Shown one piece after another: positions 3,904-38,503 of a DNA stretch of 43,065 nucleotides. Source of the stretch: Candidatus Omnitrophota bacterium. Its GTDB lineage: Bacteria; Omnitrophota; Gorgyraeia; Zapsychrales; Fredricksoniimonadaceae. The stretch covers positions 1 through 43,065 of the forward strand of contig JADFXW010000003.1 of assembly GCA_015233375.1 (NCBI GenBank), in the 5' to 3' direction. Each line of letters begins with the position of its first letter. Positions within the stretch are counted from its first letter, which is position 1. Below the pieces are notes generated by a model. The model saw only the letters and a list, made by a program, of their open reading frames with translations. It made no database searches and was not told the origin of the DNA. A program made the position numbers and the translations under genes.

Positions 3904-4129
3904 AATCAATTAACCTGTTGTAATTATTTACTTTATAACATCCCCATAATTCTTCCAAAAATATTTTTTTATAAAAATAAAATAAAATTTCTTATTTTTA
4001 TCTATTTGCAATCATGAAGGTTGGAAACGTTTTCTCAAAATTGTCGACGTAATATAAACATTTGCTTTTTAAAAAATATATGCTATTCTTTCAAAGAATC
4101 TTCCTATTAACTTTTTGACAAAATATACT

Positions 4130-7100
4130 ATGAAAACACTACAAAAAACCCTCTGTTGTTGTGTCATTGTTAGTTTCATTGTCACCTCGTTATTCAATCC
4201 TTCAGTATTTGCCCAAAATGTTTCTCAAGAAAATTTAACAAAATTATTGATTACCTTGCCTACGCCAGGCACAAGGGTAGATTTAAGCCCTGCATTTAAT
4301 CCTGTGGTTATCAGGGGTTTAAAAATCCATCCTGAAAACCCATTTTTATTCGATTTTATTGTTGATCCAGGTGATGACCATTTAAAGGGCGAGGGTTTAC
4401 GCACTCCTGTCCAACGCCTGGTTAATTATTTTTTGGCAGCCTTGGCTGTGCCTGAAAAAGACCTTTGGGTTAACTTGTCACCTGTGGAAAGAAACCGCAT
4501 TATCCCGGATTCTCTTAATAAAACAGAACTGGGAAGAGACCTTTTAGCAGAAGATTATATCCTCAAACAAGTAAGCGCTTCTTTAATATATCCTGAAAGC
4601 CATCTGGGGAAAGTTTTTTGGGCCAAGGTTTATGAGGAGGCTTATAAGAAATTTGGCAAAACCCAGGTGCCAGTCAATATTTTTAATAAAGTTTGGATAC
4701 TTCCTGAAAAAGCCTCAGTCTATGAAAAAGGCAACTCCGTTTATATTGTCAACGCGCATTTGAAGGTGATGCTGGATGATGATTTGATGGCCCAAGGTTT
4801 ATTGGGCAAGAAGGGGAGTTCAGGGTCAAAGGTTTCTGGGGTCAAGGATGTTTCAACAGATGTGATGCGCCAGGTGATTTTGCCGGCTATTGACAAAGAA
4901 ATTAATGAGGGGAAAAATTTTGCCCAGGTCAGACAATCTTTTTATTCATTGATATTGGCCCAATGGTACAGGGATGTATTCAAAGCCTCCATCCTTAATA
5001 AAGATTACGCGGGACGTAATAAGGTCGCGGGTATTGATTATAGTGATCCGAAGAATAAAAATGTTATTTACCAGAAATATTTAGCAGCCTATCGTAAAGG
5101 TGTTTTTAATTACATTAAAGACGAAACCAGCCTTTTGACTCAAAGTCCTTTACCAAGGAAGTATTTTTCGGGCGGGTTTGATGGTATGCACCGTGTAGAA
5201 CGCGACTCCGTGTCTTTGCCTGGCACAACAGCCGCAATGGCTTCTTCTGTGAATGTGCGGGTTAATATTGAGCCTTTGACGCAGCATGCATCAGCGGCCA
5301 TGATACCAGCTGAACTTCCACCTGATGACATATGGTTTTCTTTTCAGTTTCCACAAAAGGTTCTTCTCCCGCTATTAATAGATTGTTTAAGTAGTCCGCA
5401 TTATTTTAACAAGGACAAACTTTTTGCTTTTATAGAAAAATATTCACAAAAAGTGGCTGCTCAAAGAAAATCTCCTGTTGAAGGAGCATGGCCTGTGTTA
5501 AAAGCAATTACCCTGTTATCAAAAAGACAAGAAGCTGATTTGGTTGGAATTCTTCAAAAAAGATACCCTGATTTAAAAAATCGCCCTCTATTGGTTGATA
5601 AGATTCTATTAATGAATAATGTGGTTGATAAAGAAAATTGGTTAAAACAGAGGACTCCCCATTTGCAAGGCCGCAGGATATATCTGACCGCAGCAGAAAT
5701 TCATTATTGGTCAGGAGGTTTGGGTCCTGTCATGAAATTCCACGGCAAAGGCATGAAGGATTTAGGCGCAGATGTGTGTTATGTTGAGCCTCGTTATCAA
5801 TTAGGGAAGAATGTGCCAATAGCAAAATATAAAATTGCTGAGGCTTTAGGTTCTAACTATTTACAAAACTTGATAAGTGTGGGATTCTTGCACGAGGTGT
5901 CGTCTTTGGAAGTGAAGCCTAATTTACAAGGGGGAGTTCTTCAGGATTATGAACTGGAACAAGCTGTTGGTCTTGACATTGGTCGTCAGATAGTGGGAGT
6001 TTTGGTCAAGAGTCAATATGCCGAAATTATTGGACAAACTGAACTGCATCTTAGTAGGAATGTCAGTGAAAATGAGATTATATGGAACCTTGGTGAGCAT
6101 CATTTCCCAGAAGAAGTCAAAGTTGCTTTTCAAAAATTAATCCAGCGTTCTAAAAAAGTTTTACAAGATGATGAGGTCTTACGTGCATTAGGCTCTGATA
6201 AAGCCCGTAAATTTTGGAGTATTTTACCTCAAAAGCTTGATTATAGAAACGCTAATATCAAAATACACGATTTAGAGGAAGATGTGGATGAGTTTGTGAT
6301 TGAAATGGGAAACACCGATCCATGGGGAAATAAATTAGAAGGAATGGTTGTTAAAGAAGCTCTTTCATCTGATCCTAAAAAAGCTGAAACAATTTGGGAT
6401 GCTTTGCAAAGAGGTGGGATTATAGATTTCATGGGACAATATGCTGGACAAAGGATGTTTGATGAAACTACGATCAGGAATTTGCTTGATTTGCCGGGAA
6501 TTTCAGATCAAGAAAAGAAAGACGTTTCCGAAATGCTCTTACGAGTTGTGAGAGAAAATCTTAAGCAAGTTAGGGTCAAGGTTGCGAAGGGTGTGGATGA
6601 AAATGGAATCACGGTTTATTTATTTAAAGATGTAGGTTTTGATGGCGTATCATCCTATTACACCAAAATGCTTTATAGTTACCACAAACCTGATAATCCT
6701 ATTAGTCAAGAACAATCCATGGCTTTTATTAATATTGCAACCGCTGAATTGATAAATCGCCTTGAACGTCAAAGACAACAAGATGATCCTGATTGGAAAC
6801 CCGCCATAGTTCATGCCAATGATGGGCAATACGGTCCTTTACAAGCTGTTATGCAGAGCCGGCATGGCCATAATAACTGGATGGCTAATATTATTTACGC
6901 AGCAACAACACATACGTATCAAAATCGTGGTGGAAATGTTGTAGAATTTGGCATTAATACATTTTTGCGTTTTATGTTGAGGGTCAAAGAAAGATTCATT
7001 AGTGCCTTTCGACGTGGATTCAATTGGATTGATTTCACTAGTGGAGGCTTAAGGCTTGCTCATTGGGCTGGTGGTGTTAGTCAAAAACAAAGTAATGATG

Positions 7101-8629
7101 TTAACCCTTTAGACCCTCACACAAATGTGGTGGGGATTACGAATGGGGCTGTCCCTGAAGAAATGGCTGCTGTTTACCGTCAAACATTTAAAGAATTACA
7201 GAAAATTGGGGCTATCCCTCAAGATGCTGATTATGAAAGGCCAACATGGGAAGAAAATGCTAAAACGAAAGAAGCCTGCCGGGTAAAATTGAATAATGCT
7301 GACATTAGGACAGCTAATGGAGGGACATTAAGGGTTGGGAATGGGCCTATCATTGGTTATGCCAGAAGACTGGTTCCTGAGAAGGCAGGAAGAACAAGAA
7401 GAAATCTAGATCGTACTGTTGAGCCTGGGGCTTTTTCTGATACGAATATTAAGAGGATGGTTGCGTTAGGTTATGAAGTGGTTTTATTGGGTAATATTCA
7501 GGGTTCAGATGAAAGCGAGGATCTTGCCGCAGGGTTAAGGAGCTTAGAAAGGGAGATAAGAAGACTTAAACACAACGATCCCAATACATATAAAGGAAAT
7601 TTTCAATTTGTGGAGTCCTTTACCCCACAAGATAAGGTTTTGTTTGAAGCTGCTGTTAATATCCAAATCCAAGACTCTTGGCCTAGCACAGGAGCTTGTG
7701 AGTTTTCTGAGGAAGATTCCACTGCGACCGGGGGCGTTCAAGGCGGAACAGATGAAGGGGTTATTCAACGTCAAGGTATTCCGTTAAAATACCGAGAAAA
7801 AGACAAAGAACACGAACAGCCTGTAGGTCAAACTGTATTTCCTGCTGAGTATACCGAAGATTCATGGTATAACACGGTCTTTAAACCATTAAAGGAGTAT
7901 TGGGACAGAGACCGCGACCATAGAACATTTTATGAACATGCGGCTCTTTCTCCAAGATTAAACCGTATTCAAAACTATCTTTTAACATCAGCGGATTATT
8001 TAATGGAGTATCAAAAGGTTATTGAACTTCAGGAAAGAATTGCTGTTGAGGACACACAAGCGCTGAATGCTATCGTTAATGATCTTCAACAAAATCATGC
8101 AAGCGACATAAATGAAATTGTTTATAATTCGCACGGTATTGGTCCTTTTGGGTTTGATATTTATGGAGTCAGAGCTGAAAATGGGGGGTTACGATCTTTT
8201 CTTGATGCCCGGAATGGTTTAGAAAACACCGTTGGTTATGATGCTTTATTGCATTACACCCAGAGAGGCGATATTCAGAATTATTTAAAAGCTTTATTTC
8301 GCAATACTGGCCAATCTCAACAGATATTATCTCATTGGTTAGATAGAGTAGCAAGAGATGAAGATTTAAGCCTTGATCAAAAAAATCAACGTTTGGGGCA
8401 ATTTATTGAACAGCTGACATTGTCTCTGGAAGTCGCAGGGGTTAATCATGCCATGGCGCCTGGCGGTATCAAATTAGATAATATTGATATTGAAAAGCAT
8501 GGAAGCCTGACTGCCAATCTTGTTACAAATAAGACCCTTGAAGATATGCTTATTCAATCAGCAGGGGTTAGGGGAGATATTATGGCTATTACGGCTATCC
8601 CTAATCTCATGGAATTTATTGTTAAGTAA
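4130..8629 (+). CDS. P1: exported giant protein with conserved head, glycogen synthase/phosphorylase-like GT-B payload and conserved tail
   Basis: Signal peptide MKTLQKTLCCCVIVSFIVTSLFNPSVFAQ. Head motifs are shared with P2-P4 (HPENPFLFDFI, LWVNLSP, GRDLLAEDYILKQ, FNKVWILPEKA, INEGKNFA, PRKYFSGG). Middle motifs are SGGLGPV, IVHANDGQYGP, THTYQNRG, GITNGA and YARRLVPEKAG. Tail is GGIKLDN... An alternative TTG start lies at 4115. Confidence 0.85.
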   Translation: MKTLQKTLCCCVIVSFIVTSLFNPSVFAQNVSQENLTKLLITLPTPGTRVDLSPAFNPVVIRGLKIHPENPFLFDFIVDPGDDHLKGEGLRTPVQRLVNYFLAALAVPEKDLWVNLSPVERNRIIPDSLNKTELGRDLLAEDYILKQVSASLIYPESHLGKVFWAKVYEEAYKKFGKTQVPVNIFNKVWILPEKASVYEKGNSVYIVNAHLKVMLDDDLMAQGLLGKKGSSGSKVSGVKDVSTDVMRQVILPAIDKEINEGKNFAQVRQSFYSLILAQWYRDVFKASILNKDYAGRNKVAGIDYSDPKNKNVIYQKYLAAYRKGVFNYIKDETSLLTQSPLPRKYFSGGFDGMHRVERDSVSLPGTTAAMASSVNVRVNIEPLTQHASAAMIPAELPPDDIWFSFQFPQKVLLPLLIDCLSSPHYFNKDKLFAFIEKYSQKVAAQRKSPVEGAWPVLKAITLLSKRQEADLVGILQKRYPDLKNRPLLVDKILLMNNVVDKENWLKQRTPHLQGRRIYLTAAEIHYWSGGLGPVMKFHGKGMKDLGADVCYVEPRYQLGKNVPIAKYKIAEALGSNYLQNLISVGFLHEVSSLEVKPNLQGGVLQDYELEQAVGLDIGRQIVGVLVKSQYAEIIGQTELHLSRNVSENEIIWNLGEHHFPEEVKVAFQKLIQRSKKVLQDDEVLRALGSDKARKFWSILPQKLDYRNANIKIHDLEEDVDEFVIEMGNTDPWGNKLEGMVVKEALSSDPKKAETIWDALQRGGIIDFMGQYAGQRMFDETTIRNLLDLPGISDQEKKDVSEMLLRVVRENLKQVRVKVAKGVDENGITVYLFKDVGFDGVSSYYTKMLYSYHKPDNPISQEQSMAFINIATAELINRLERQRQQDDPDWKPAIVHANDGQYGPLQAVMQSRHGHNNWMANIIYAATTHTYQNRGGNVVEFGINTFLRFMLRVKERFISAFRRGFNWIDFTSGGLRLAHWAGGVSQKQSNDVNPLDPHTNVVGITNGAVPEEMAAVYRQTFKELQKIGAIPQDADYERPTWEENAKTKEACRVKLNNADIRTANGGTLRVGNGPIIGYARRLVPEKAGRTRRNLDRTVEPGAFSDTNIKRMVALGYEVVLLGNIQGSDESEDLAAGLRSLEREIRRLKHNDPNTYKGNFQFVESFTPQDKVLFEAAVNIQIQDSWPSTGACEFSEEDSTATGGVQGGTDEGVIQRQGIPLKYREKDKEHEQPVGQTVFPAEYTEDSWYNTVFKPLKEYWDRDRDHRTFYEHAALSPRLNRIQNYLLTSADYLMEYQKVIELQERIAVEDTQALNAIVNDLQQNHASDINEIVYNSHGIGPFGFDIYGVRAENGGLRSFLDARNGLENTVGYDALLHYTQRGDIQNYLKALFRNTGQSQQILSHWLDRVARDEDLSLDQKNQRLGQFIEQLTLSLEVAGVNHAMAPGGIKLDNIDIEKHGSLTANLVTNKTLEDMLIQSAGVRGDIMAITAIPNLMEFIVK

Positions 8630-8718
8630 AGAACTCCCCCTTACCCCCTCTTTAATCGCTTCGCAAAGAGGGGGTAAATAATTTTTCCCCCTCTTTAATG
8701 CTTCGTAAAGAGGGGGTA
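8630..8718. repeat. Hairpin repeat family A, double-hairpin copy (intergenic, after P1)
   Basis: GAACTCCCCCTTA, then CCCCCTCTTTAATCGCTTCGCAAAGAGGGGG (8644-8674), then CCCCCTCTTTAATGCTTCGTAAAGAGGGGG (8687-8718). The first hairpin is followed by an A/T-rich run and could terminate P1. Confidence 0.85.
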
Positions 8719-8783: not shown

Positions 8784-10112
8784 ATGTATTTCCTTTATGA
8801 TATTATTTTATTTATATATGCCCTGATTTATTTGCCCTATCTTTTATTGACCCAAAGGGCTTATCCTGGATTTGGGATGCGGTTTGGCTTATTTCCAGGG
8901 TCTATTCAATCACAGATAAAGAACAAGGCCAATATTTGGATTCATGCGGTCAGTGTGGGTGAGGTTTTGGCTTTAGATGGGTTTATTGACCGTTTAGAAA
9001 CAGATTATCCTTCTTATCAGATAATTTTAACAGTTACAACCAAGACAGGGCTGGCTTTGGCGCGTCAACGCCTTAAGGATAAGGCCTTGGTTGTGCCTTC
9101 TCCCATAGATTTTAGCTTTGTTACCCGATATTTTGTCTCGTTCATTTCCCCTAAATGCTATATCGCTGTGGAAACTGAAATTTGGCCTAACCTTTACAGA
9201 CAGTTATCCCGCAAAAATATCCCTATGGTAGTCATTAACGGCAGAATTTCAGATGCTTCTTTTGGGAGGTATAAGGCCGTTTCTTTTCTTTTAAAAAGAT
9301 GCCTCAATCAGGTGACTAACTGGTGCATGCAAAGCCAGAAAGACGCTCAAAGAATCATTGATTTAGGGGCTAATCCTGATAGGGTGCGCGTTTGTGGGAA
9401 TTTAAAATTTGAGGCTGTGTCTCGTGGAGGAGGAAATTCTTTAAAAGATTGCTTCGCTTCGCTCGCAATGACAGAAGACAATGGGCGTTTACCTCATTAT
9501 CTTTGGTGGGTGGCGGGAAGCACGCATCCTGGTGAAGAGGAAATCGTTCTTGATACCTATAATCAAATGATTAAAGATAATCCCCAATGGCGTTTAATGA
9601 TAGCACCGCGGCATATTGAACGTGTGCCACAGATTGTTGATTTGGTGGGGCGTTTTGGATTTAGGGCTGTTAGGTTTTCTTCATTAGAACTGGATTCCTG
9701 CTTGTCGCGAAATGACAAAAAGGAAAACGGGGATGACCATGACAAGATTAAAGAGATACTCATTATAGATACGATAGGGCAATTGCGGTCGTTGTATGCG
9801 CTCGCAGATTTGGTTTTTGTGGGAAAAAGCCTGTGCGGTTTTGGCGGGCAAAATGTGATTGAACCTGCATTTTATGGTAAGGCTATTGTCATTGGACCTC
9901 GTTATGAAAATTTTCGGGATATTGTGGATTGTTTTAAAGAAGCTGGCGCTATTGTTCAAGTCGAAGATGTCCCTGCTTTTAAAACAACGGTGTTCAATTT
10001 ATCACAAGATGTTTCAAAACGTGAACAATTAGGCAAGGCTGCCCAAGGTGTCATTACGGCTAATCAAGGGGCAGTTGGACGGTGTTTAGAGATAATAAAG
10101 AAAATTATGTAA
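8784..10112 (+). CDS. waaA: 3-deoxy-D-manno-octulosonic acid (Kdo) transferase
   Basis: IWIHAVSVGEV near the N-terminus, STHPGEEE, and a C-terminal GT-B half typical of WaaA/KdtA. Carries two in-frame repeat relics (see findings). Confidence 0.92.
   Translation: MYFLYDIILFIYALIYLPYLLLTQRAYPGFGMRFGLFPGSIQSQIKNKANIWIHAVSVGEVLALDGFIDRLETDYPSYQIILTVTTKTGLALARQRLKDKALVVPSPIDFSFVTRYFVSFISPKCYIAVETEIWPNLYRQLSRKNIPMVVINGRISDASFGRYKAVSFLLKRCLNQVTNWCMQSQKDAQRIIDLGANPDRVRVCGNLKFEAVSRGGGNSLKDCFASLAMTEDNGRLPHYLWWVAGSTHPGEEEIVLDTYNQMIKDNPQWRLMIAPRHIERVPQIVDLVGRFGFRAVRFSSLELDSCLSRNDKKENGDDHDKIKEILIIDTIGQLRSLYALADLVFVGKSLCGFGGQNVIEPAFYGKAIVIGPRYENFRDIVDCFKEAGAIVQVEDVPAFKTTVFNLSQDVSKREQLGKAAQGVITANQGAVGRCLEIIKKIM
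9444..9473 (+). repeat. Hairpin repeat family C copy inside the waaA coding sequence, in frame
   Basis: AAAGATTGCTTCGCTTCGCTCGCAATGACA, translated as KDCFASLAMT. Matches 42768-42797 at 26 of 30 positions by hand alignment. Confidence 0.75.
9690..9723 (+). repeat. Degenerate CTGGATTCC...AATGACA-type repeat relic inside waaA, in frame
   Basis: CTGGATTCCTGCTTGTCGCGAAATGACAAAAAGG, translated as LDSCLSRNDKK. It shares CTGGAT(T/C)CC and ATGACAAA ends with the intergenic hairpin at 34203-34234. Confidence 0.45.
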
Positions 10113-10137
10113 GGGCAGACACAAGGTCCGCCCCTAC
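10113..10137. repeat. Hairpin repeat family D copy (GGGCAGACACAAGGTCCGCCCCTAC)
   Basis: Intergenic between waaA and lpxK. Same core as GGGCCGACACAAGGTCGGCCTCTGC at 36278-36302 inside P3. Confidence 0.6.
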
Positions 10138-10154
10138 GATTAGTTGGGATATCA

Positions 10155-11267
10155 ATGAGTCAATTTATGCTTTCAATCATGCAAGGTCAACGGCGGGATA
10201 TTATTGCTTGTTTGGTGATTGCTTTGCTTATGCCCTTGACCTTGCTTTATGCTTTAGGCGTTTTTTGTCATCGTTTATTTTATCGTTTCAAGGGTGTTTA
10301 TAAAGCGCCTTTGCCTGTGATTAGTATTGGGAATATCACCGTTGGAGGCACGGGTAAAACGCCTTTGGTGGTGTGGGTGGCCCAGGTTTTAAAGGATAAA
10401 GGGCTGAAAAGTGTTGTTTTAACACGTGGGCATATGCCTCAAGAGGGTCAACTCAGTGATGAGGCGCTTATGATGACGGAACAATTGCCTGATGTGCCTG
10501 TTTTATCAGGGGCGGATCGCATCAAGAATATAAAAAATAATAGTTTGTCTAGCAACGTCTATATTTTAGATGATGGCTTTCAACATTGGAAAATCCAGAG
10601 GGATTTGAATATACTGCTGATAAATGCGGCTAATCCATTTGGTAATGGGCATTTATTGCCTGCAGGTATTTTACGAGAAGGGCTTGGGGCTTTAAAGAGG
10701 GCGGATGTTATTGTCTTGACAAAAACTGATCAGGCAGGGGATATCAAAGCTTTATATAATAAGATACATCAAATAAATCCTTCTGTCCTTGTTATTGAAA
10801 GCTGTTATCAACAACCGCAAATAGTGGATGTTTTTTCTAGGGAACTCGTAAAAAAACTCCCCCTAACCCCCTCTTTAAAAAAAGAGGGGGGATTTATAGG
10901 GAAATCCTCTTTTTCAAAAATAGGGAGAAAAGGGATTTCCTATGGTACTGTATTAGCTTTTTGCGCTATTGCAGACCCTGCTTCTTTTGAATTTCAGCTA
11001 AGAAAAGTCTTCATCGCTCATGATATACAGATATTCAACTTTATGGATCATCATGTTTATACCAAGGAAGATGTTTTAAAAATCACTGAATCAGCAAGAG
11101 ATAATAACATAGCAACACTCGTTACAACACATAAAGATGCTGTTAAACTGTATCAATTCAAGGATATTTTTAAAGGATTTCGTTTGGTGTATATCTCTGC
11201 TCCAATAGAAATAACTAAAGGGTCGCATGAATTTGTTCAAAAAATCAATTCAATTTGCAGCTATTAA
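10155..11267 (+). CDS. lpxK: Tetraacyldisaccharide 4'-kinase
   Basis: ISIGNITVGGTGKTP (P-loop), LTRGH and ILDDGFQH are LpxK hallmarks. Contains an in-frame family A repeat insertion of about 100 nt. Confidence 0.9.
   Translation: MSQFMLSIMQGQRRDIIACLVIALLMPLTLLYALGVFCHRLFYRFKGVYKAPLPVISIGNITVGGTGKTPLVVWVAQVLKDKGLKSVVLTRGHMPQEGQLSDEALMMTEQLPDVPVLSGADRIKNIKNNSLSSNVYILDDGFQHWKIQRDLNILLINAANPFGNGHLLPAGILREGLGALKRADVIVLTKTDQAGDIKALYNKIHQINPSVLVIESCYQQPQIVDVFSRELVKKLPLTPSLKKEGGFIGKSSFSKIGRKGISYGTVLAFCAIADPASFEFQLRKVFIAHDIQIFNFMDHHVYTKEDVLKITESARDNNIATLVTTHKDAVKLYQFKDIFKGFRLVYISAPIEITKGSHEFVQKINSICSY
10841..10940. repeat. Hairpin repeat family A, double-hairpin copy inserted in frame in lpxK
   Basis: AACTCCCCCTAACCCCCTCTTTAAAAAAAGAGGGGGG, then GGAAATCC-TCTTTTTCAAAAATAGGGAGAAAAG-GGATTTCC. 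Translated as ELVKKLPLTPSLKKEGGFIGKSSFSKIGRKGIS with no stop codon. Confidence 0.8.
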
Positions 11268-13194
11268 ATCGATAGCTAACCTTTTTAATTGTCTGCCCAT
11301 GGGGCTTAACCTTTGGATAGGAAGATGTATAGGGCATCTTGTTTATTTTTTCCTTTCTCGTAAAAGAAGGGTGGTGTATGCCAATTTAAAGACCGTGTTT
11401 TCCCAGACCCATTCTCCTTCACAAATCCGTCGAATGACCAAGGAGGTGTCGGTCAACTTCTTTCAAAGTATTATAGAGTTTTTATGTTTGCCCAAAATCA
11501 AACGTTTAGGGTTTGAAAAATTTGTGACACTGGAGGGAAAAGAAAATATTGAACAAGCGCTGTCCAAAGGCAAGGGAGTCATCTTTTTGGCGGTCCATTC
11601 CGGGAGTTGGGAATTGGCGAGTATCATAGGCAGCCTGACAAACAGCACCTATCATATAGTCGCCAATGAACAACCTAAAATGCAGTCATTAGCCAAGATG
11701 CTTGATGAATACCGGACCATTGTTGGGGCGCATGTGATAAAAGCAGGAAGTGCCACCAAAGAAATCATTCAAGCCCTCAAAGCCAATGAGATAGTTTCTT
11801 TGGTTTTGGATCAAGGGGGAAGAACAGGGATGGTTTTGCCATTTTTAGGTAAAACAGCGTCCCTGTCAACAGGGGCCATTCGCCTTGCTTTAAAATATGG
11901 ATGTGCTGTTTGTCCCGTATGGATTGAGCGGCAGAATAATCGCAGGCATTTATTGCGTGTTTTTCCTGCCATGGATATGAGCGTTTCAGGTGATTTAAAA
12001 AAAGATTTACGAGATAACATGCTCAAGGCCACAGCCTTTTTCGAGAAAACTTTAAGAGAAAAACCTTTAGAATATATGTGGTTTTATAAGGTCTTTAAGT
12101 ATTCGACAAATAAAAGGATTGTGATTATTGATGATGGAAGAACCGGCCATTTAAGGCAATCCCAATCTGTGAGCAGGCATTTAACTGAAATTTTACAGAA
12201 AAAAGGAATAACTGTTGAAGAGAATACGGTATTTTTTGAATGGCGAAATCTTTGGGCTGCGCATTTATTTTCATTTTATTCCTTTTTAGCGCAATATTAC
12301 CCCTTATTAAGAAATGAAGACAATTTAAAACTGTTTCTGAAAAATCAGTCTTACAATAATTTGATAAAACAGAAAGCTGATTTTATCATTTCTTGCGGAT
12401 TTCAAGGGGCAGGGATCAATTTTATACTGAGTCAAAATCATTTGGCCCAATCTATTGGCATATTAACGTCTGGATTATTATCAAAGGACCATTTTAAGGC
12501 GCTTGTATGGCCTGCTCATCGCAAACCCTTTGCCTCAAAATGCACCTGTATTATTAGACCTAAGGTGTCACCAAATTTGATAAACCCATCCTACTTAAAA
12601 GAACAGGGAGAGGGTCTTATCAAACATTATTCACATCTAAGAGGCAATATGCGCCTGAAATTTGGCGTTTTGATAGGTGGGCATGCCAAAGGGATTAAAT
12701 TAAATGAAAAAGCAATACACGAATTATTAAGCCAGATCAAACAAGCTGCAGAGCATTATAACGCGGACATATTATTAACCACATCGAGGAGAACACCCAA
12801 ACCCATTGAACAATTAATACTCAGGGAATTAAAAAATTTCCAACGCCTCGGTCTTTGCATCATTGCGAATCAACGCAATGTGCCTCAAGCCGTAGGCGGC
12901 ATCTTGTATTTATCAGACCTTGTCATTGTTTCAGGAGAAAGCATATCCATGGTTTCAGAAGCGCTCAGTTCTAAGAAAAGGACCATTGTTTTTCATCCAC
13001 AGGGAGAATATGGGGTGAAACCAGCTAATAAATATGAAGATTTTGTATTGAAATTAAATGATGAAGGGTATCTAATGATTAGCTCAGTGGGCAATATAAA
13101 AACAACCATCGCGCAATTATTGGGTCAAAAATTCAAGTTAAAATCTTTGGATGATGAAAACATTATTAAAGAAGGATTGGCGCGGATTATTTAA
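11227..13194 (+). CDS. Fusion of an LpxL/HtrB-type lipid A late acyltransferase with an ELM1/GtrOC1-like putative glycosyltransferase domain
   Basis: The N-terminal ~295 aa resemble lauroyl/myristoyl acyltransferases (RKRRVVYANLKTVF, AVHSGSWE, DQGGR). The C-terminal part starts IVIIDDGRTGHLRQSQSV, typical of the Mito_fiss_Elm1-type family. Overlaps the lpxK end by 41 nt. Confidence 0.75.
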   Translation: MNLFKKSIQFAAIKSIANLFNCLPMGLNLWIGRCIGHLVYFFLSRKRRVVYANLKTVFSQTHSPSQIRRMTKEVSVNFFQSIIEFLCLPKIKRLGFEKFVTLEGKENIEQALSKGKGVIFLAVHSGSWELASIIGSLTNSTYHIVANEQPKMQSLAKMLDEYRTIVGAHVIKAGSATKEIIQALKANEIVSLVLDQGGRTGMVLPFLGKTASLSTGAIRLALKYGCAVCPVWIERQNNRRHLLRVFPAMDMSVSGDLKKDLRDNMLKATAFFEKTLREKPLEYMWFYKVFKYSTNKRIVIIDDGRTGHLRQSQSVSRHLTEILQKKGITVEENTVFFEWRNLWAAHLFSFYSFLAQYYPLLRNEDNLKLFLKNQSYNNLIKQKADFIISCGFQGAGINFILSQNHLAQSIGILTSGLLSKDHFKALVWPAHRKPFASKCTCIIRPKVSPNLINPSYLKEQGEGLIKHYSHLRGNMRLKFGVLIGGHAKGIKLNEKAIHELLSQIKQAAEHYNADILLTTSRRTPKPIEQLILRELKNFQRLGLCIIANQRNVPQAVGGILYLSDLVIVSGESISMVSEALSSKKRTIVFHPQGEYGVKPANKYEDFVLKLNDEGYLMISSVGNIKTTIAQLLGQKFKLKSLDDENIIKEGLARII

Positions 13195-13199
13195 GTGAG

Positions 13200-13383
13200 G
13201 TTTATGGACACTTTAAAAAGTTTTTTCCGAAACGGGATATTTTCGCCGTCGTCTACGGTTTGCGATAATTGTTTTCTAAAGCATCCTTAGTATATTTGGA
13301 AAACAATTATCGCAAAGCCTTGACGACTTTTGGCGAAAAATCCCTTAATGTTTCGGAAAAAACTTTTTAAAGTGTCCATAAAC
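13200..13383. repeat. 184-nt long palindromic element, family B, copy 1
   Basis: GTTTATGGACACTTTAAAAAG...CTTTTTAAAGTGTCCATAAAC is a near-perfect inverted repeat across its whole length. The second copy is at 25000-25183. Confidence 0.95.
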
Positions 13384-13409
13384 ACGCATCGCGTGAATTT
13401 AAAAAACAT

Positions 13410-15497: not shown

Positions 15498-15596
15498 AAG
15501 GAACTCCCCCTAAACCCCCTCTTTAAACGCTTCGCAAAGAGGGGGAACGTGCCGTGGAAACTGCATGGCTCCCTCTTCAAAAAAAAGAGGGGGAAT
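15498..15596. repeat. Hairpin repeat family A, double-hairpin copy; the second hairpin contains the SD of the next gene
   Basis: GGAACTCCCCCTAAACCCCCTCTTTAAACGCTTCGCAAAGAGGGGG, then CTCCCTCTTCAAAAAAAAGAGGGGGAATAT, ending 7 nt before the ATG at 15603. Confidence 0.85.
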
Positions 15597-20227: not shown

Positions 20228-20268
20228 TAAGAACTCCCCCTAACCCCCTCTTTAACTAAAGAGGGGGG
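20228..20268. repeat. Hairpin repeat family A, single-hairpin copy containing the gspD SD
   Basis: AAGAACTCCCCCTAACCCCCTCTTTAACTAAAGAGGGGGG, ending 12 nt before the ATG at 20281. Confidence 0.85.
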
Positions 20269-20280
20269 AATATATTAATT

Positions 20281-24990: not shown

Positions 24991-24999
24991 GATGGTGAC

Positions 25000-25183
25000 G
25001 TTTATGGACACTTTAAAAGCTTTTTTCCGAAACGGGATATTTTTGCCGTCGTCTTCGGTTTACGACAATTGTTTTCTAAAGCATCCTTAGTATATTTAGA
25101 AAACAATTATCGTAAAGCCTTGACGACTTTTGGCAAAAAATCCCTTAATGTTTCGGAAAAAAGCTTTTAAAGTGTCCATAAAC
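25000..25183. repeat. 184-nt long palindromic element, family B, copy 2 (between gspF and gspG)
   Basis: Same length and orientation as 13200-13383, with 11 differences by hand alignment. Confidence 0.95.
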
Positions 25184-25208
25184 ACGAATCAATTGAAAGG
25201 AAATTTAT

Positions 25209-29796: not shown

Positions 29797-32700
29797 ATGT
29801 GCCATATAAGAAGAAAGACAAGCCGTAAGATTATTGCACAGATTATTTTTTTTACTTTTATTTATATTTCTGTTATTCCTCCTGTTTTAGCCCAATCTGT
29901 TGACCCAATACCTTATATGCCTCAAGCAGGCCTCATGGTGCGCTTAAGCCAGAGGTTTACACCTGCCTACTTAACAGGGATAGTCATTCATCCTGAGAAT
30001 GCCCTGAAATTTGATTTTATTATTTATAAAGGAGATAAGAAGCTTAGTGACTCCCAAAAACGCATAGAATATACAAAATTAGCTAAATACTTTTTAGCCT
30101 CTTTAGCCATTCCAGATGAAGACCAGTGGGTCAACCTGTCTCCTTATGAAAAAAACAGGCTCATCCAGGATGATTTTGGCAAGACTGAAATGGGCCGTGA
30201 TTTATTAACACAGGATTATATGCTCAAACAAATAACAGCTTCTTTGATATATCCAGAAGATAATTTAGGCAAGAAATTCTGGGGGAAGATTTATACAGAG
30301 GCCCAGAGGCGATATGGGACCAGTGATGTGCCGGTCGATACCTTTAATAAGGTTTGGATACTCCCAGACAGCGCCGTAATTTTTGAAAAGGGTAATGCAG
30401 CGTATATTTTAAAGAATCATTTAAAGGTGATGTTGGAAGAAGACTATTTATCCTTGCAAAAACACTCTGCCATTTCCCTCTCTTTAAACAACAAAACACA
30501 CAGCATCGCCTCTAAAATTATCAAAGAGATAGTCCTTCCCGCCTTACAGCGCGAAGTCAACGAAGGCAAGAATTTCGCGCCATTAAGGCAAGTTTACAGC
30601 GGCATGTTGTTAGCGGCCTGGTATAAACGAGCTCTTAAGGATTCATTATTAGGGAAGATATACGCGAATAGGGCCAAGGTCAAAGGTATAGACCAGGACC
30701 CAAGAATGAATGAACGGATTTATCGTCAATACTTAAAGGCTTATAAAAAAGGTGTTTTTAATTTTATTAAGGAAGATGTTGATAGATATACACATGAAAT
30801 GATTCCAAGAAAATATTTTTCTGGCGGGACAATGGGTTTTGGTGCAACGCCAGCGACCTTTGCGCAGGTTGTCGAACGCACATCTAGTCCTACCAAAATT
30901 ACCCAAGCTAATGCGTTAATACCTGAATCAGATTTGGTATCAGCAGCTATGCAAGCGCCATCAGAAAAAATACCAACAAAAGAAAATCATGCTATGCAAT
31001 CATCACTACGGAATATTTTAAATGAAATGAAAGTAGAGGGTTCTAGACAAGAAGAATATGCATTAAATCAGGCTTTTCAACTTATTGAACTTTCAAAACT
31101 TAAGCCGCAAAAAATCGAAGATAAAGATCTTAACATATTAATTGAAGGATTATCAGGAAAGCATGGACTAGCGTCTTTTTTGTTAGGTAGGATTTCTATG
31201 TCAGGTGTTTTATTACATTTTTTAAAAGATTTTGTTCCTGCTTATCTAAGTTATAAACAAGCAACAGATATTGTTCAGGCTCTGAAGGCTTTCTGGGGAA
31301 TGGGTACAAAAGGGGATGCTCAATTGAAAGAACTGATAGGAACACCATTAGATCATAGTGAACAGGTCAATGAGGCTGAAAAGATGGTTGAGTCAGTTTA
31401 TCAAAGGTCGCCAGTTGCTCAGAAAGTGCGTTTAGGTGGCAATCGTCAAGGTGGAAGCAAGAAAATACCTTTTAGAGGTCCTGTGTGGATTACAGCAGGA
31501 AATTTTTCTTATAAGGTATGGGAAGAAAATGGGTTGGTGAAATTCCAAAGGTATGACGCAAAAGATGGGAAAGAACAAGGAGGAGAATACGTGGTTCCCC
31601 CTGGGAACGCATGGAATGTTGGTAGAGTTCGAGAATATAATAATTATGTAATGAAAGATGAAGCCTTATCTAGCCAGCATTTTTCTTTTAAGGTGATTAA
31701 TGGAGAAATATTAATAAATGATTTAAAGTCTTTCAATGGTACTGTGGTTCAATGGGATGCTGCGATGACTCATCTGACGGAGAAGGACACTAACTTTATT
31801 GATAGAGGGATGATTGCGAATGCTTCAGTCGCTGAGAGAAAGTCTGTCATTGAAGAAATTAATCAGAGTGGGAATTTGCGAGATGCTGAAATAGCCCGAA
31901 GGCTTAAAGAATTAGGGTATCATCCTTCGGGTGAGTTTGATTTTGATGAAAATGGCCATGGACACCCTATTATAATGGGATATCACCAGTTTCGTAATGT
32001 GGAAGACACCATGCTTGTTGACCCCGAAATAGATAAAATATTTGATGAAGTCTATAAGGAATTTTTTCAAAAATTAAGAGAGAAGTTTCAAGGCGTTGAT
32101 TTGGATCATTTGCTAGGAGGAGACAAACATGAAGCTATAGTAGCTATATATCAAATTTTATATCAGAATTTTGAATATGAAATTCTTTCACAACATAGAC
32201 AGGGAAGAGTGGTTTTAATTGGTGACACCTATAGTAGAGGGGCAGACGGAAAGGGTGTCTGCCGTCACATGGGGCTTTTTATTGCTGCTATCTTACGTCG
32301 ATTAATTGAGGCTAACGTATTGCACGGGAGTGTCTATTTGGTTGGAAGAAATGGTCATGCTTGGGCTGTTTATCAAACTAGCGGTAAAACAGAACAAACG
32401 AGAGGGAGATACGTCTTTGATCTGGCGCAAAAAAAGTTTTTGCAACCAGGCCAAGTGGGAAAATATAAGGGAAATGGGGAACAGATGTATAATTATGATG
32501 ATGCTTTTGATGAATTGAAACAACAAGAAGCATCAAATCAAGCGGCAGGAGAAATCAGACCTTCGCCAGAGATAGATTTAAGTATACTACATACTTCACC
32601 ACATGGCGCTCGAGCTAAGCACAACGATCAGTATTTAGAAAGAGAAAATGATATTGTTCTTCGCAATACGACGGTGTTGACGGAATTTATGAAGATGCAT

Positions 32701-34167
32701 CATAGTACAAAATCCCCAGGGCCTATGAAAGCATTTCTTCAAGTTGAAGATGGATTAATTTCAAATATTAATATCTTCCCAAGTACAGGAGCTATTCCAA
32801 TTACAATTGATAGTAAAGGGAAAATTTCTTTAAACGAAGATGAGGATAGAATAACTAATGAATATTCTCTTATCAAAAGGGCATGTGACAGGTTTAGTAT
32901 GCTTTATAAAGGAAATTCGCAAGAACCGATAGAGTATAAAGGTCCTTTGACTTTGATCTTGGCTAAAAATATTGAATTGACAATTGTGGAAGAAGCGCCT
33001 GGTCAATTTTTTATTAAGGGCAATTTAGGTTTGATATCTGAGGTGTCTATCCCCTTATTAGATAAGGCTACTAACCCCGAAGAAAATCCAGTTCAGATAG
33101 GAAGAAACGCTGCAGACAATTTACAGATCGGGTCGAATAAGATGCTGGCGTCGACAGACCAGGGAATTAAGAAAATTTCTTCAAGTCATCTTACTATCTC
33201 ACGAGTTGGTAGAACAATATATTTCAGGGATGGAAATGGCAACGATAAACCTTCGACCAATGGGACCATGATCATTGACGCGGATGCCGTGGCCCCTGAA
33301 GCAATCATTGAGAAAAATATGAAGACCCTCAATTCTGATGCAATTAATGATGCAATTAATGATGCAATTAATAAGGCGAGGGCTGAACATAGAAGAGTTT
33401 CTCGCAGAATTGAGATTCCTGTTAATGTCGATAAATATGGACAGATAATAACTTTTGGAAATCCTGACGACACTACTAGGGAATTATATTCGTTTACCCT
33501 ATCTGTAAGAGCAGCGTGGGATAGGCAGGATAATCCATTTCAGATATCGGAATTTGAATATTGGCCCGACGAAGGCGTATTGCGTGATGCGGTAGGCTTA
33601 CAAGATGCTCAAGTGTTACAAAATATAAAAAAGATGCTTGATGATACAATCGATAGAATAAATAAGGAATTCATTAGTCAAGAACTTGAAGATGATGAAA
33701 CGAGGTTAATTTTAGCATTTCGTTTATTTGCACAAGGAAAGGAGGAGTCGGCAAAAAAAATGCTAAAAACTACAGATCCACCTCAACTTACTCGTAGGTT
33801 TGCTCAGGATTTCCTGCAATGTCAAAATTTTGATACAACTTACAAAGCGTTCAAAAAAAAGAATTGGGTTAAGGGTGATAGATTCGCATTGTTGGTGCAC
33901 AATCTTCAAACTACAGAATTAAGGGGTATCGTAAAGGGAATTGCTGACAGTGCTATGGTGGGACAAGTTAATAATCATCAATACGGTGGTATTGATTTTA
34001 ATTCTGCTAATTTGGCCATGATAATTAAACGGGATGCTCATGGGGGCAGCTTCCCGTTGTCAAAGCAAGAAATGGCTATTTTAAATAAAATTGAAGGCTT
34101 GGAACCAAAAGTCCTTTCCATCATACCTGCTATCGAATCATCTCTTGTTTCAGATCTTGTGAGTTAA
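29797..34167 (+). CDS. P2: exported giant protein with conserved head, FHA - transglutaminase-like - FHA payload and conserved tail
   Basis: RBS GGGAGGGAG. Signal peptide ends VLAQ. Head is shared with P1/P3/P4. FHA1 has VGRVRE..SSQH..SFNGT. Cys-His-Asp core is GVCRHMG / GHAWAV / VFDLA. FHA2 has IGRNA..SSSH..STNGT. Tail is YGGIDFNSANL... Confidence 0.85.
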   Translation: MCHIRRKTSRKIIAQIIFFTFIYISVIPPVLAQSVDPIPYMPQAGLMVRLSQRFTPAYLTGIVIHPENALKFDFIIYKGDKKLSDSQKRIEYTKLAKYFLASLAIPDEDQWVNLSPYEKNRLIQDDFGKTEMGRDLLTQDYMLKQITASLIYPEDNLGKKFWGKIYTEAQRRYGTSDVPVDTFNKVWILPDSAVIFEKGNAAYILKNHLKVMLEEDYLSLQKHSAISLSLNNKTHSIASKIIKEIVLPALQREVNEGKNFAPLRQVYSGMLLAAWYKRALKDSLLGKIYANRAKVKGIDQDPRMNERIYRQYLKAYKKGVFNFIKEDVDRYTHEMIPRKYFSGGTMGFGATPATFAQVVERTSSPTKITQANALIPESDLVSAAMQAPSEKIPTKENHAMQSSLRNILNEMKVEGSRQEEYALNQAFQLIELSKLKPQKIEDKDLNILIEGLSGKHGLASFLLGRISMSGVLLHFLKDFVPAYLSYKQATDIVQALKAFWGMGTKGDAQLKELIGTPLDHSEQVNEAEKMVESVYQRSPVAQKVRLGGNRQGGSKKIPFRGPVWITAGNFSYKVWEENGLVKFQRYDAKDGKEQGGEYVVPPGNAWNVGRVREYNNYVMKDEALSSQHFSFKVINGEILINDLKSFNGTVVQWDAAMTHLTEKDTNFIDRGMIANASVAERKSVIEEINQSGNLRDAEIARRLKELGYHPSGEFDFDENGHGHPIIMGYHQFRNVEDTMLVDPEIDKIFDEVYKEFFQKLREKFQGVDLDHLLGGDKHEAIVAIYQILYQNFEYEILSQHRQGRVVLIGDTYSRGADGKGVCRHMGLFIAAILRRLIEANVLHGSVYLVGRNGHAWAVYQTSGKTEQTRGRYVFDLAQKKFLQPGQVGKYKGNGEQMYNYDDAFDELKQQEASNQAAGEIRPSPEIDLSILHTSPHGARAKHNDQYLERENDIVLRNTTVLTEFMKMHHSTKSPGPMKAFLQVEDGLISNINIFPSTGAIPITIDSKGKISLNEDEDRITNEYSLIKRACDRFSMLYKGNSQEPIEYKGPLTLILAKNIELTIVEEAPGQFFIKGNLGLISEVSIPLLDKATNPEENPVQIGRNAADNLQIGSNKMLASTDQGIKKISSSHLTISRVGRTIYFRDGNGNDKPSTNGTMIIDADAVAPEAIIEKNMKTLNSDAINDAINDAINKARAEHRRVSRRIEIPVNVDKYGQIITFGNPDDTTRELYSFTLSVRAAWDRQDNPFQISEFEYWPDEGVLRDAVGLQDAQVLQNIKKMLDDTIDRINKEFISQELEDDETRLILAFRLFAQGKEESAKKMLKTTDPPQLTRRFAQDFLQCQNFDTTYKAFKKKNWVKGDRFALLVHNLQTTELRGIVKGIADSAMVGQVNNHQYGGIDFNSANLAMIIKRDAHGGSFPLSKQEMAILNKIEGLEPKVLSIIPAIESSLVSDLVS
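33337..33372 (+). repeat. Perfect 12-nt tandem repeat x3 (GATGCAATTAAT) inside P2
   Basis: Read directly from the sequence. Encodes DAIN-DAIN-DAIN. Confidence 0.95.
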
Positions 34168-35918: not shown

Positions 35919-36022
35919 AGGTTGATTATTATATCTAAAATAATTTGTTTTTTAAGCTAATTTTAATGAAAACTTCAAGATATGTATGTTATACTTTAGA
36001 AGCAATCATTTCAAAAGGATAC

Positions 36023-38503
36023 ATGATAAATTTATCTAAAAATCATCCTTTTTTTATCTGCATTACCGTATTCATTTTTTTATCTTTGAATATTAATCTA
36101 CCTTATCCAGCTTTTGCTCAAGACGTCTATTATCTTCCTGAACCAGGGACCATGGTCCATGTAAGCCAGGCCTTTGATTCACCTGTCTTAAAAGGTATTA
36201 AAGTTTATCCTGATAACCCTTTGCGGTTTGATTTTATTATGGATGTAGGGTCGGACTTTATGTCCGACCGAAATCATGGGCCGACACAAGGTCGGCCTCT
36301 GCGAATGGAAGCAGGCAAGCTCATCAAATATTTTCTCGCAAGCCTTACTGTTCCTGAAAAAGACCTTTGGGTTAATTTAAGTCCCTATGAGAAAAACCGC
36401 ATTATTCCTCATAGCTTTGGATTAACTCAAATGGGCCGTGACTTGTTAGGGGAAGATTATGTATTAAAACAAATCACAGCTTCGCTAATTTATCCAGAAG
36501 ATGCCATAGGTAAAAATTTTTGGAAAAGAATATATGAACAAGCAGTTATAAAATATGGAACAACGAATATTCCAGTCAACACTTTTAATAAGGTATGGAT
36601 AGTGCCAGAGAAGGCGATTGTGTATGAAAACACTAAGGCCGGGACAGCGTATGTGATGGAAAGCAAATTAAAGGTGATGCTGGAGCAGGATTATTTGGCA
36701 TTAGAGAAAACCCAGCGGCCTACCAGGGGACATGTTCAAAGCAGAACATCAAAGAACGTGTCCCCAAGCACGTTGCCAAGCGAAGTAGCATTGAATATGA
36801 AAGCGCCCCAAGGAAATCCCCGTACGCCAAACAAAGACATCAACGCTCTTGGTTCTAAAATTATCCGTGAAATCGTCATTCCACAACTAACAAAAGAGGT
36901 GAATGATAATAAAAATTTCGCCAAATTACGACAGGTGTACAATTCACTCATATTAGCTACATGGTATAAACAAAAAATTAAAGACAGTCTATTAGAAGCG
37001 GTATATGCAGATAAAAATAAAGTTGCTGGAATAGGTTATGAGAAGGGGACAGGGTCCTTGAAAGCCAGGGCCCTGTCTTCTTCAACACCTAACGATATCG
37101 AATTTATCTATCAGCGCTACCTTCAAGCCTTCAAAAAAGGCGTTTATAACTATATTAAGGAAACTCAAGACCCTGTCACAAGGCAAAATATTCCAAGAAA
37201 ATATTTCTCAGGCGGGATTAAATGGGAGATTACTCGAGCCATGGTTGTAACTCATCAATTAGATAAAAATATGAAAAGCCTGCCTAACAGGCTATATGAG
37301 GTTGAGGCTAATTTGATCATGTCTGAAGATGAGGCTATTGAAAGGGCAGGTATTGCGGTACGCAGAATTCTTCTACATGATTCAAGTCTAAGACAAACGC
37401 CGCTTGAGATACAAAATTTAAGAAGATTCTTAATAGATTGTGAAGAAGAATTGACTGATTTGCATTATCAGGAGCAGGCGGTGTTTTATTATCATAAATT
37501 GGATGAAGCGTTTCATGTGTTAATGGAGGCGCGTCCATTTGCTATTTCTTCTAAAGAGGGTAAAGCTGATCTTGAAGGATCTATGCTTGCTATTTCGCAA
37601 CTAGAGAAGTGCTTATTGATAGTTCAGGACCTGTACGAAAAATTCAAGAATGAAAATTTTCTGGATGCCAGATCCTATGAATCGTGTTTGATGTTCTTTA
37701 ATCTTATCTTAGATGGGCTTAAATCCAGCTTAGAAATTGCCCGTAGAAAGCTGTTTTCAGAAACAACAAACGTGAAAGAAGTTATTGAGGCATTTCATAA
37801 ACTTCATTCCTATGTGCGTATTATAGACAATTCACCTCAACAACCATTGATTATAAAAGGTGACTCAATGGCCTTAATATGCGCTCTTCACAATTTAGCT
37901 TATAATGCCATTTCTGCACTAAATGGAATAAAAAAGAAAGCAGAAATTGTCTTAACAGTTTCTGTGGATAGTGGAAATTTGGTTTTATCGGTTTCTGATA
38001 ACGGTCCAGGTTTTGATAATCCGCCGGTTCCTGGTCGTCCGCCAGCTCTTGATTGGGACCCTGTTACAAATAGACAACGGATATTCAATTTAAATGTTAC
38101 CTCAGGAGCAATCAGTAAAAGCACGGGCTTGGGAACTACCGAAGTGTATTATGTGGTCAAAGACCATTTTGGAGAAATAACGGCAAACAATAGACTAGAT
38201 GATCAAAATTCAATCATTGGAGCTAACTTCACTATCAGAATACCTTTATCTATTGAGGCCGTAGACACAGCTATTATAAAGAATTCCAAAGTTATTCCGC
38301 AGCAAAAGATAGATGTAAAATATGGAGGTATTGATTTAACTAATTCAAAAGTTCTAGAGACAAAAAAAGACAATAAAGGGATTAATTTTAAGTTTGATCC
38401 AATATTATTTCAGGAATGGAAGAACGCAAGAGGCTTTTCTGCGGCAGTCACAAGCGTTAAACTCATCAAAAGCGTTCAAGAATTTGTGCAAAATCCTACT
38501 TGA
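36023..38503 (+). CDS. P3: exported protein with conserved head, histidine-kinase-like (HATPase_c) payload and conserved tail
   Basis: ATG at 36023 preceded by AAGGA. Signal peptide ends AFAQ. The head closely resembles P4. Payload has an H-box-like LHDSSLRQTPL, N box LHNLAYNAISA, G1 DNGPGF and G2 TGLGT. Tail is YGGIDLTNSKVL... Confidence 0.85.
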   Translation: MINLSKNHPFFICITVFIFLSLNINLPYPAFAQDVYYLPEPGTMVHVSQAFDSPVLKGIKVYPDNPLRFDFIMDVGSDFMSDRNHGPTQGRPLRMEAGKLIKYFLASLTVPEKDLWVNLSPYEKNRIIPHSFGLTQMGRDLLGEDYVLKQITASLIYPEDAIGKNFWKRIYEQAVIKYGTTNIPVNTFNKVWIVPEKAIVYENTKAGTAYVMESKLKVMLEQDYLALEKTQRPTRGHVQSRTSKNVSPSTLPSEVALNMKAPQGNPRTPNKDINALGSKIIREIVIPQLTKEVNDNKNFAKLRQVYNSLILATWYKQKIKDSLLEAVYADKNKVAGIGYEKGTGSLKARALSSSTPNDIEFIYQRYLQAFKKGVYNYIKETQDPVTRQNIPRKYFSGGIKWEITRAMVVTHQLDKNMKSLPNRLYEVEANLIMSEDEAIERAGIAVRRILLHDSSLRQTPLEIQNLRRFLIDCEEELTDLHYQEQAVFYYHKLDEAFHVLMEARPFAISSKEGKADLEGSMLAISQLEKCLLIVQDLYEKFKNENFLDARSYESCLMFFNLILDGLKSSLEIARRKLFSETTNVKEVIEAFHKLHSYVRIIDNSPQQPLIIKGDSMALICALHNLAYNAISALNGIKKKAEIVLTVSVDSGNLVLSVSDNGPGFDNPPVPGRPPALDWDPVTNRQRIFNLNVTSGAISKSTGLGTTEVYYVVKDHFGEITANNRLDDQNSIIGANFTIRIPLSIEAVDTAIIKNSKVIPQQKIDVKYGGIDLTNSKVLETKKDNKGINFKFDPILFQEWKNARGFSAAVTSVKLIKSVQEFVQNPT
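36247..36302. repeat. Two adjacent perfect hairpins inside the P3 head (GGTCGGAC-TTTAT-GTCCGACC, plus a family D copy GGCCGAC-ACAAG-GTCGGCC), in frame
   Basis: Read directly from the sequence. Translated as VGSDFMSDRNHGPTQGRPL. The site is a length-variable loop in the four-way protein alignment. Confidence 0.75.
36726..36765. repeat. Hairpin repeat family E inside the P3 head, in frame
   Basis: GGGGACATGT...ACGTGTCCCC. The homologous site in P4 is 42288-42321. Confidence 0.6.

Follow-up and report, generated by a model that had tools for sequence, protein, structure and literature searches.

An in-frame palindromic repeat in the lipid A kinase gene lpxK of an Omnitrophota bacterium, most probably tolerated as a surface loop

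We analysed a 43,065-bp contig of Candidatus Omnitrophota bacterium (JADFXW010000003.1, GCA_015233375.1; G+C 39%), called the window below, in which the gene lpxK, encoding tetraacyldisaccharide 4'-kinase (10155-11267, + strand), carries a copy of a small palindromic repeat that we term family A. The insert is most probably a selfish repeat, a passenger that the enzyme tolerates as a surface loop, and it behaves like the palindromic elements of Rickettsia (RPEs). The gene is one unbroken open reading frame (ORF) of 370 amino acids (aa), and window positions 10839-10940 translate as R-ELVKKLPLTPSLKKEGGFIGKSSFSKIGRKGIS, with zero stops, immediately 5' of YGTVLAFCAIADPASF; this bears out an earlier sequence-only reading as to the coordinates of the insert, its stop-free translation and its position just before AFCAIADPASF.

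By domain, motif and fold the product is an LpxK. It matches Pfam PF02606 (E=1.8e-68, 231.5 bits against a cut-off of 27) over residues 23-364, a match that covers both flanks of the insert, and keeps all invariant LpxK motifs (GGTGKTP 64-70, DDGFQH 139-144, LPAGILRE 168-175, DHH 298-300 and TTHKD 324-328). It matches the Aquifex aeolicus LpxK structures in sequence (E about 6e-29), and its top Foldseek matches, 4lkv, 4ehy and 4ehx, are all A. aeolicus LpxK (for 4lkv_B, E=6e-22 and target-normalised TM 0.76). The homologues from named organisms are Candidatus Omnitrophica, the best being only 53-57% identical.

We aligned 115 Omnitrophota LpxK sequences and counted the residues between VDVF and FCAI. 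This segment has 17 residues in 108 of the 115 proteins and 16-18 in four more; in the window protein it has 41, a net gain of 24 aa (72 nt) at the insertion site. The alignment places these 24 codons at approximately 10854-10925 (+ strand), and the insert junctions in the lpxK product read …VDVFSRELVK/KLPLTPSLK… and …IGRKGISYGTVLAF…. Only two other proteins, P0107 (28 aa) and P0120 (20 aa), have long segments at the site, both unrelated in sequence, and none of the aligned orthologues (n=115) holds a segment homologous to the insert. Since the other long segments are unrelated and 108 of the 115 orthologues have 17 aa, the segment is an insertion and not an ancestral loop. This agrees with the earlier proposal that an intergenic repeat had been inserted in frame into lpxK; the finding named there as contrary to it, a homologous segment in orthologues that lack the nucleotide repeat, does not occur in this Omnitrophota alignment. 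The orthologue alignment suggested there for the boundaries supports the insertion and leaves its boundaries uncertain by several codons, and the ORF is indeed longer than usual, but by 24 aa and not by the 33 aa that had been implied.

The first part of the inserted DNA, hairpin 1 (10855-10895, + strand; AACTCCCCCTAACCCCCTCTTTAAAAAAAGAGGGGGGATTT), is a canonical family-A unit in the truncated single-hairpin (T) form and matches the family consensus exactly (nhmmer E=1.6e-14). Its 5' outer arm AACTCCCCC (10855-10863) is followed by TAA and then by the inner hairpin CCCCCTCTTT/AAAGAGGGGG, whose 10-bp stem pairs 10867-10876 with 10881-10890 (-18.1 kcal/mol); the whole unit is translated as (K)LPLTPSLKKEGGF. 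The 24/25-nt arm of the family, AACTCCCCCTWA(N)CCCCCTCTTTAA, has four copies in the window, at 8632, 10855, 15502 and 20232, on the + strand only, where 0 are expected. The 33-nt core at 10859-10891 occurs again at 20236 with 2 mismatches, also with 0 expected in shuffled sequence.

Hairpin 2 (10899-10941, + strand), translated as GKSSFSKIGRKGI, is a 16-bp interrupted stem of -18.2 kcal/mol (z=-3.1), an energy equalled by none of 200 shuffles. It is probably the diverged second hairpin of the double (D) form, and its 3' arm may be native lpxK sequence; to judge from the sequences compared, its homology to family-A second hairpins is likely but not established. Against a D-form profile of 94 positions, made from 15 full members with double hairpins, window 10855-10934 matches model positions 1-89 and scores 49.2 bits, compared with 42.1 bits for the single-hairpin copy at 20232; the second half of the lpxK copy adds about 7 bits. 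Aligned with the second half of a copy in a gene for apolipoprotein N-acyltransferase (Lnt; locus L005), the lpxK second half scores 25, which 0 of 2000 shuffles reach (12.5±2.2), and its local alignment with the window copy at 15546 scores 18, reached by 39 of 2000; these second-half alignments involve low-complexity sequences, and native Lnt codons make up part of the match to L005. The outer stem of hairpin 2 (GGGAAATCC/GGATTTCC) is absent beside the other copies across 775 kb of related loci. Thus only hairpin 1 is clearly the identical element to the intergenic copies, and the link of hairpin 2 to the family is weak. The sequence-only reading had described a complete double-hairpin repeat identical to the intergenic elements at 8630-8718 and 15498-15596. 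Two stable hairpins are indeed present and the identity holds for hairpin 1, but the link is weak for hairpin 2 and the repeat is not complete, as the 3' outer arm GGGGGAGTT of the full family form is missing in every window copy, that in lpxK included.

The element-like DNA, from 10855 to about 10941 (some 87 nt), exceeds the 72-nt net gain; therefore either about nine native residues were replaced or hairpin 2 is partly native. Its 3' arm, GAGAAAAGGGATTTCC, encodes RKGIS, which is aligned to xNFLN of the orthologues; were this arm native, the 5' arm would have arisen as its inverted copy.

An AlphaFold2 model of the window LpxK, built on the 115-sequence alignment, has a mean predicted local distance difference test (pLDDT) score of 90.7, a predicted template modelling (pTM) score of 0.88 and an intact LpxK fold. 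Block means of pLDDT are 72 for residues 231-240, 51 for 241-250 and 46 for 251-260, with no secondary structure, and the flanking strands 222-225 and 266-270 sit in blocks averaging 95 and 82. Residues about 231-262 are thus predicted to form an unstructured, low-confidence loop, presumably at the surface, joining two confident strands, which is how the AlphaFold check proposed by the sequence-only reading came out. In the sequence alignment to 4EHX the insert lies upstream of the strand equivalent to residues 229-233, and in primary sequence it falls between R206 and Q240 in A. aeolicus numbering, two adenine-contacting residues of A. aeolicus LpxK (PMC6286764). The insert has 8 K/R and 2 D/E in 33 residues. 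If the model is right, the LpxK loop at A. aeolicus residues about 212-228 is marked as tolerant to a 24-residue insertion.

Family-A copies also lie in frame in at least six other families of housekeeping genes, these hosts being confirmed by a Pfam domain match that spans the insert or stands on both sides of it. Besides Lnt (L005), the hosts are a LolD-like ABC-transporter ATPase (L006/L036), a thioredoxin-reductase-like (TrxB-like) flavoprotein of the pyridine-nucleotide disulphide reductase type (L027), anthranilate synthase I (TrpE; L047), a HemC-HemD fusion (L072) and an RluD-like pseudouridine synthase (L108). Two Lnt orthologues, 83% identical, have the element at the same site, one in double and one in single form, so in-frame copies can outlast speciation and switch form. 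The element is read in four frame/strand combinations, giving LPLTPSL… in 13 cases (including lpxK), TPPNPLF… in 2, SPS(L/F)VKEGVRGS in 10 and SPSFLKRGLGGV in 4; no single peptide is conserved, which argues against a protein-level function of the element. Both strands of the full single palindrome (S form) code for ELPLTPSL.KEGVRGS. Freedom from stop codons was rejected as evidence by itself, because the T form is open in four of the six frames. At least 12 public contigs, encoding members of a family of very large Omnitrophota proteins, have intact elements in frame 3' of the motif LKVMLEEDYLALQK, and another Omnitrophota LpxK, P0077, has different palindromic repeats in frame in two other loops.

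The family was sampled by exact matches to the 24/25-nt arm, which undercounts decayed copies and favours well-preserved ones. Among GTDB species-representative genomes 40 loci contain the exact arm, and among metagenomes 86 do (80 of the 86 being listed); the sample comprises 133 copies in 127 sources, the 126 fetched public contigs being mostly Omnitrophota. The metagenome-assembled genomes (MAGs) of the genome loci are labelled, as deposited, Omnitrophota, 'Planctomycetales', Delta- and Gammaproteobacteria, Elusimicrobia and Dehalococcoidia. Plasmids and IMG/VR contigs held no copy of the arm, phages gave three weak partial matches, no Rfam family matched in the window, and the open-access full texts searched by sequence, peptide and topic contained no account of the element. 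Its general layout is an outer arm GAACTCCCCC, TAA and an inner hairpin CCCCCTCTTT-loop-AAAGAGGGGG, with two optional 3' modules, a spacer plus second hairpin and an outer arm GGGGGAGTTC. The S form, of 47-48 nt, reads (G)AACTCCCCC-TAA-CCCCCTCTTTAA-loop-AAAGAGGGGG-TTA-GGGGGAGTT(C); the D form, of 75-125 nt, has two inner hairpins and a spacer closed by outer arms; and the T form, of 39-42 nt and without one outer arm, is the commonest, with 70 of the 133 copies. Slippage from one G5 run to the other in the S form could give rise to the T form. At L109 (also L119), positions 1494-1844, three hairpins and two related spacers of 110-130 nt make up a 355-nt array enclosed by outer arms; the array lies between hsdS and a DUF559/hsdR pair and is a composite form of the element. 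At L094 the purS-purQ and purQ-purL gaps are each occupied by a D element, which places GGGGGAG 6-13 nt before the next ATG. Location could be evaluated for the 118 copies away from contig ends, a copy counting as internal if stop-free for at least 60 codons on each side: 42 lie at an ORF 3' end, 47 elsewhere outside long ORFs and 29 (25%) inside. In the flanks of 29 full copies, G tends to precede the element and C to follow it, which extends the palindrome.

In one MAG labelled Gammaproteobacteria (CAXNEI01; L008/L031 and L016/L017) family-A copies end longer shared segments, of 368 bp at 91% and 164 bp at 88% identity, with diverging flanks on the other side, a pattern pointing to recombination or duplication at the element, or else to contigs that break at repeats. 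We rejected reading the 368-bp shared flanks (91%) as an insertion sequence (IS), since they look like paralogous gene ends.

These observations suggest how the lpxK copy may have arisen. A small dispersed palindromic repeat, which by its distribution is or was mobile, would have inserted into the lpxK codons of a loop between two beta-strands of the C-terminal domain. The gene would have survived since the 72 nt of net length are divisible by three and the element is stop-free in this frame, and the encoded Lys/Gly/Ser/Pro-rich flexible peptide (LPLTPSLKKEGG...) would loop out at the surface, leaving the kinase fold undisturbed. The insert would then be a neutral or nearly neutral passenger and no functional module of LpxK, in a family whose usual habitat appears to be intercistronic gaps at gene 3' ends, with about a quarter of the sampled copies in frame in genes. 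The sequence-only reading had left the choice between a repeat-encoded loop that the protein tolerates and a function of the hairpin within the mRNA; we favour the tolerated loop because the AlphaFold2 fold is intact, the element recurs in at least six other host families, and it is read in four frame/strand combinations.

Co-option of the insert at the protein level, with the basic loop binding the anionic membrane or substrate or serving as a regulatory or protease-accessible loop, would fit its strongly basic composition, the persistence of in-frame Lnt copies across speciation and the use by LpxK of an amphipathic helix plus a basic patch to work at the membrane interface (PMC6286764). We nevertheless consider it improbable, given that other hosts read the element DNA in four different frames, that 108 of the 115 orthologues do without such a loop, and that the loop is predicted to be disordered. 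It also seems unlikely that the hairpins act in the lpxK mRNA or operon transcript, by pausing ribosomes before the C-terminal domain, as a site of RNase processing or stability, or by partial attenuation of the downstream lipopolysaccharide (LPS) genes. No T-run follows the element and the terminator scan makes no call there, two results on which a terminator role was rejected; moreover, the element has no Rfam family, and intragenic copies elsewhere decay (the second hairpin of L005 has only -8.5 kcal/mol, and large-protein paralogues hold remnants). Such a role would nonetheless suit the two adjacent stems of about -18 kcal/mol each, the pairing of hairpin 2 that is kept despite sequence divergence, and the location of intergenic members at gene 3' ends and between cistrons, like that of repetitive extragenic palindromic (REP) elements. 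The contig being a metagenome assembly, in which repeats can cause misjoins, an artefact at the repeat is conceivable, as is a decaying lpxK pseudogene; both are very improbable. The two flanks are consecutive parts of one gene in the same frame, which a misjoin would not give, and the gene has no stops or frameshifts, intact catalytic motifs and a confident model.

Several points nevertheless weigh against a selfish repeat tolerated as a loop. Hairpin 1 is a perfect consensus, and hairpin 2 has diverged yet still folds at about -18 kcal/mol; this combination would also fit selection on structure at the DNA or RNA level. Among 5.8 billion proteins this LpxK has no close relative, the best being 53-57% identical and not sharing the insert, and no empty-site allele was found. 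A search for public sequencing runs holding window 10400-11400 listed none, and RNA data were not found either. The flanks of the 29 full copies show no consistent target-site duplication, and none of the inverted arm pairs 0.3-5 kb apart in the 775 kb of loci encloses a transposase, the only pairs found being those of L109/L119 (the 355-nt hairpin array) and L094 (two elements enclosing purQ). With no target-site duplication, parent transposon or transposase, the case for mobility comes from the dispersed distribution alone.

A broader proposal, to which we give somewhat less than even weight, is that family A is an undescribed RPE-like repeat, mainly of Omnitrophota and also of MAGs labelled as other phyla, that is either an active horizontal mobile element with a mobilising enzyme or a conserved site bound by a protein of the host or of a mobile element, the lpxK copy being a recent event in an ongoing colonisation. 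If this is true, the identity of the 24-nt arm across lineages would point to a horizontally spreading element or a conserved binding site, and family A would colonise both intercistronic gaps, where it supplies the Shine-Dalgarno-like GGGGGAG, and surface loops of essential enzymes.

The other window copies, all on the + strand, are intergenic. A double hairpin without the 3' outer arm (8629-8717; -42.6 kcal/mol, z=-6.8) begins at the stop codon of ORF 4115-8629. A second double-hairpin copy (15498-15596) fills the space between a stop codon at 15497 and an ATG at 15603, its GAGGGGG 3' arm standing 9 nt 5' of that ATG, and a single-hairpin copy (20229-20269), 93% identical to the lpxK copy, sits between a stop at 20211 and the ATG of the secretin gene at 20281. 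The G-rich 3' arms of intergenic copies (GAGGGGG, GGGGGAG) lie 6-13 nt upstream of the next ATG, at 15584-15593 (ATG 15603), at 20258-20268 (ATG 20281) and in L094 at 340-372 and 1140-1185; they may double as Shine-Dalgarno sequences sequestered in a hairpin. The window also contains three paralogues of the very large Omnitrophota protein family (ORFs 4115-8629, 29797-34167 and 35945-38503), which carry a variable segment 3' of LKVML(E/D)xDYL. Two of the three have only decayed family-A remnants, at about 4808-4820 and 30476-30487. Independent insertions in this protein family, suggested by two apparent orientations of the element at one site, were rejected, because one palindrome with either half decayed gives the same picture.

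The gene lpxK belongs to an LPS-core operon on the + strand (window 8.8-19.6 kb), which is followed by the genes for a secretin, T2SS-E and T2SS-F. It is preceded by waaA (8784-10112) and followed by a gene (11227-13194) whose product combines a lipid A acyltransferase with an ELM1-like domain, and then by five genes for GT4 or GT9 glycosyltransferases. A 12-bp G+C-rich hairpin (10109-10137) in the 42-nt gap between waaA and lpxK is scored by the scan as terminator-like on the minus strand. Between the RGY motif and SDE, at residues about 93-101 of LpxK (window 10431-10457), this LpxK clade is without some 16 residues of A. aeolicus LpxK, and the same site is the place of repeat-derived inserts in the LpxK proteins P0021, P0067 and P0077. 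A second kind of palindromic repeat, GATTGCTTCGCTTCGCTCGCAATGAC, lies in frame in waaA (9446-9473 and 9697-9716), being read CFASLAMT, with a related piece read CLSRNDKK; a further copy stands at 42771-42797, and related repeats, IASSLRNAPRNDT and FRGNDKEGSGNDK, are in frame in another Omnitrophota LpxK (L127). Finally, a long and nearly perfect palindrome, about 190 nt in length (ends GTTTATGGACACTTTAAAAAG … CTTTTTAAAGTGTCCATAAAC), has two copies, at 13198-13385 and 24998-25185, that are 92% identical. Both are intergenic, just 5' of ORFs starting at 13410 and 25209, and have no Rfam match; their stem differences are compensatory (AAAAAGT/ACTTTTT versus AAAAGCT/AGCTTTT), and the palindrome could be a MITE (miniature inverted-repeat transposable element) or a structured leader.

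Colonisation of genes in frame by palindromic repeats has been documented mainly in Rickettsia, plus a few other cases. Omnitrophota are thought to be host-dependent, as is the Rickettsia lineage. The present case, with a different and much shorter element, suggests that such colonisation is a general outcome under weak selection against insertions, and it offers a second system in which to study the insertion of such elements and their accommodation by proteins. There is also a consequence for annotation: these inserts lengthen proteins and create spurious 'novel' loops, and can mislead homology and structure pipelines for uncultured phyla.

The closest known system is that of the RPEs, which insert in frame into unrelated metabolic genes (PMC10969869). 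As far as RPEs (Ogata et al. 2000 Science 290:347) are summarised in PMC10969869, both they and family A are dispersed palindromic repeats, a substantial fraction of which lies in frame in unrelated housekeeping genes, adding a peptide and sparing the fold, and neither is known to have a transposase. Family A thus shows the features of the RPE-like functional class: a dispersed family with dyad symmetry, in-frame insertion, a loop (here a predicted one) and recurrence in unrelated genes. In contrast, it belongs to another phylum and is very probably unrelated to RPEs in sequence, measures about 40, 48 or 75-125 nt whereas the RPEs of that summary measure about 100-150 nt, is modular (its inner hairpins number one or two, and outer arms may be present or absent), encodes in its S form the same peptide on both strands, and has its exact 24-nt arm in MAGs labelled as several different phyla. 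Judged by phylum, G+C-rich arms and shorter length, membership by sequence in RPE-1 to RPE-10 is very unlikely.

Other repeats share some of these features. Like the REPs and bacterial interspersed mosaic elements (BIMEs) of proteobacteria (PMC3733652), family A consists of short G+C-rich hairpins, sometimes paired, at gene 3' ends and between cistrons. However, it lacks the GTAG or CGTC tag, starting instead with (G)AACTCCCCC and ending with GGGGGAGTT(C), has an extra outer arm, and is intragenic in 25% of sampled copies, whereas REPs are extragenic by definition; on both tag and location it falls outside the REPs. MITEs that overlap ORFs (Coxiella QMITE1, PMC5896051; intragenic ERIC/RU, PMC2759123) have terminal inverted repeats around variable content, as in L109 with its arms 355 nt apart, and form in-frame fusions and basic peptides as family A does. 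Inverted termini of about 24 nt, made up of outer plus inner arms, are present in the S and D forms and around the L109 array, the lpxK copy being without the 3' terminus; unlike MITEs, family A shows no target-site duplication and no parent IS in the 775 kb of loci, and most copies are far smaller than typical MITEs. PARCELs, too, are coding, show dyad symmetry and are patchily distributed across phyla, but they are tandem 25-residue repeats in surface or membrane ORFs of unknown function, and are neither single insertions into conserved enzymes nor intergenic hairpins. The phenomenon is therefore a known one, and family A and its occurrence in Omnitrophota appear to be new.

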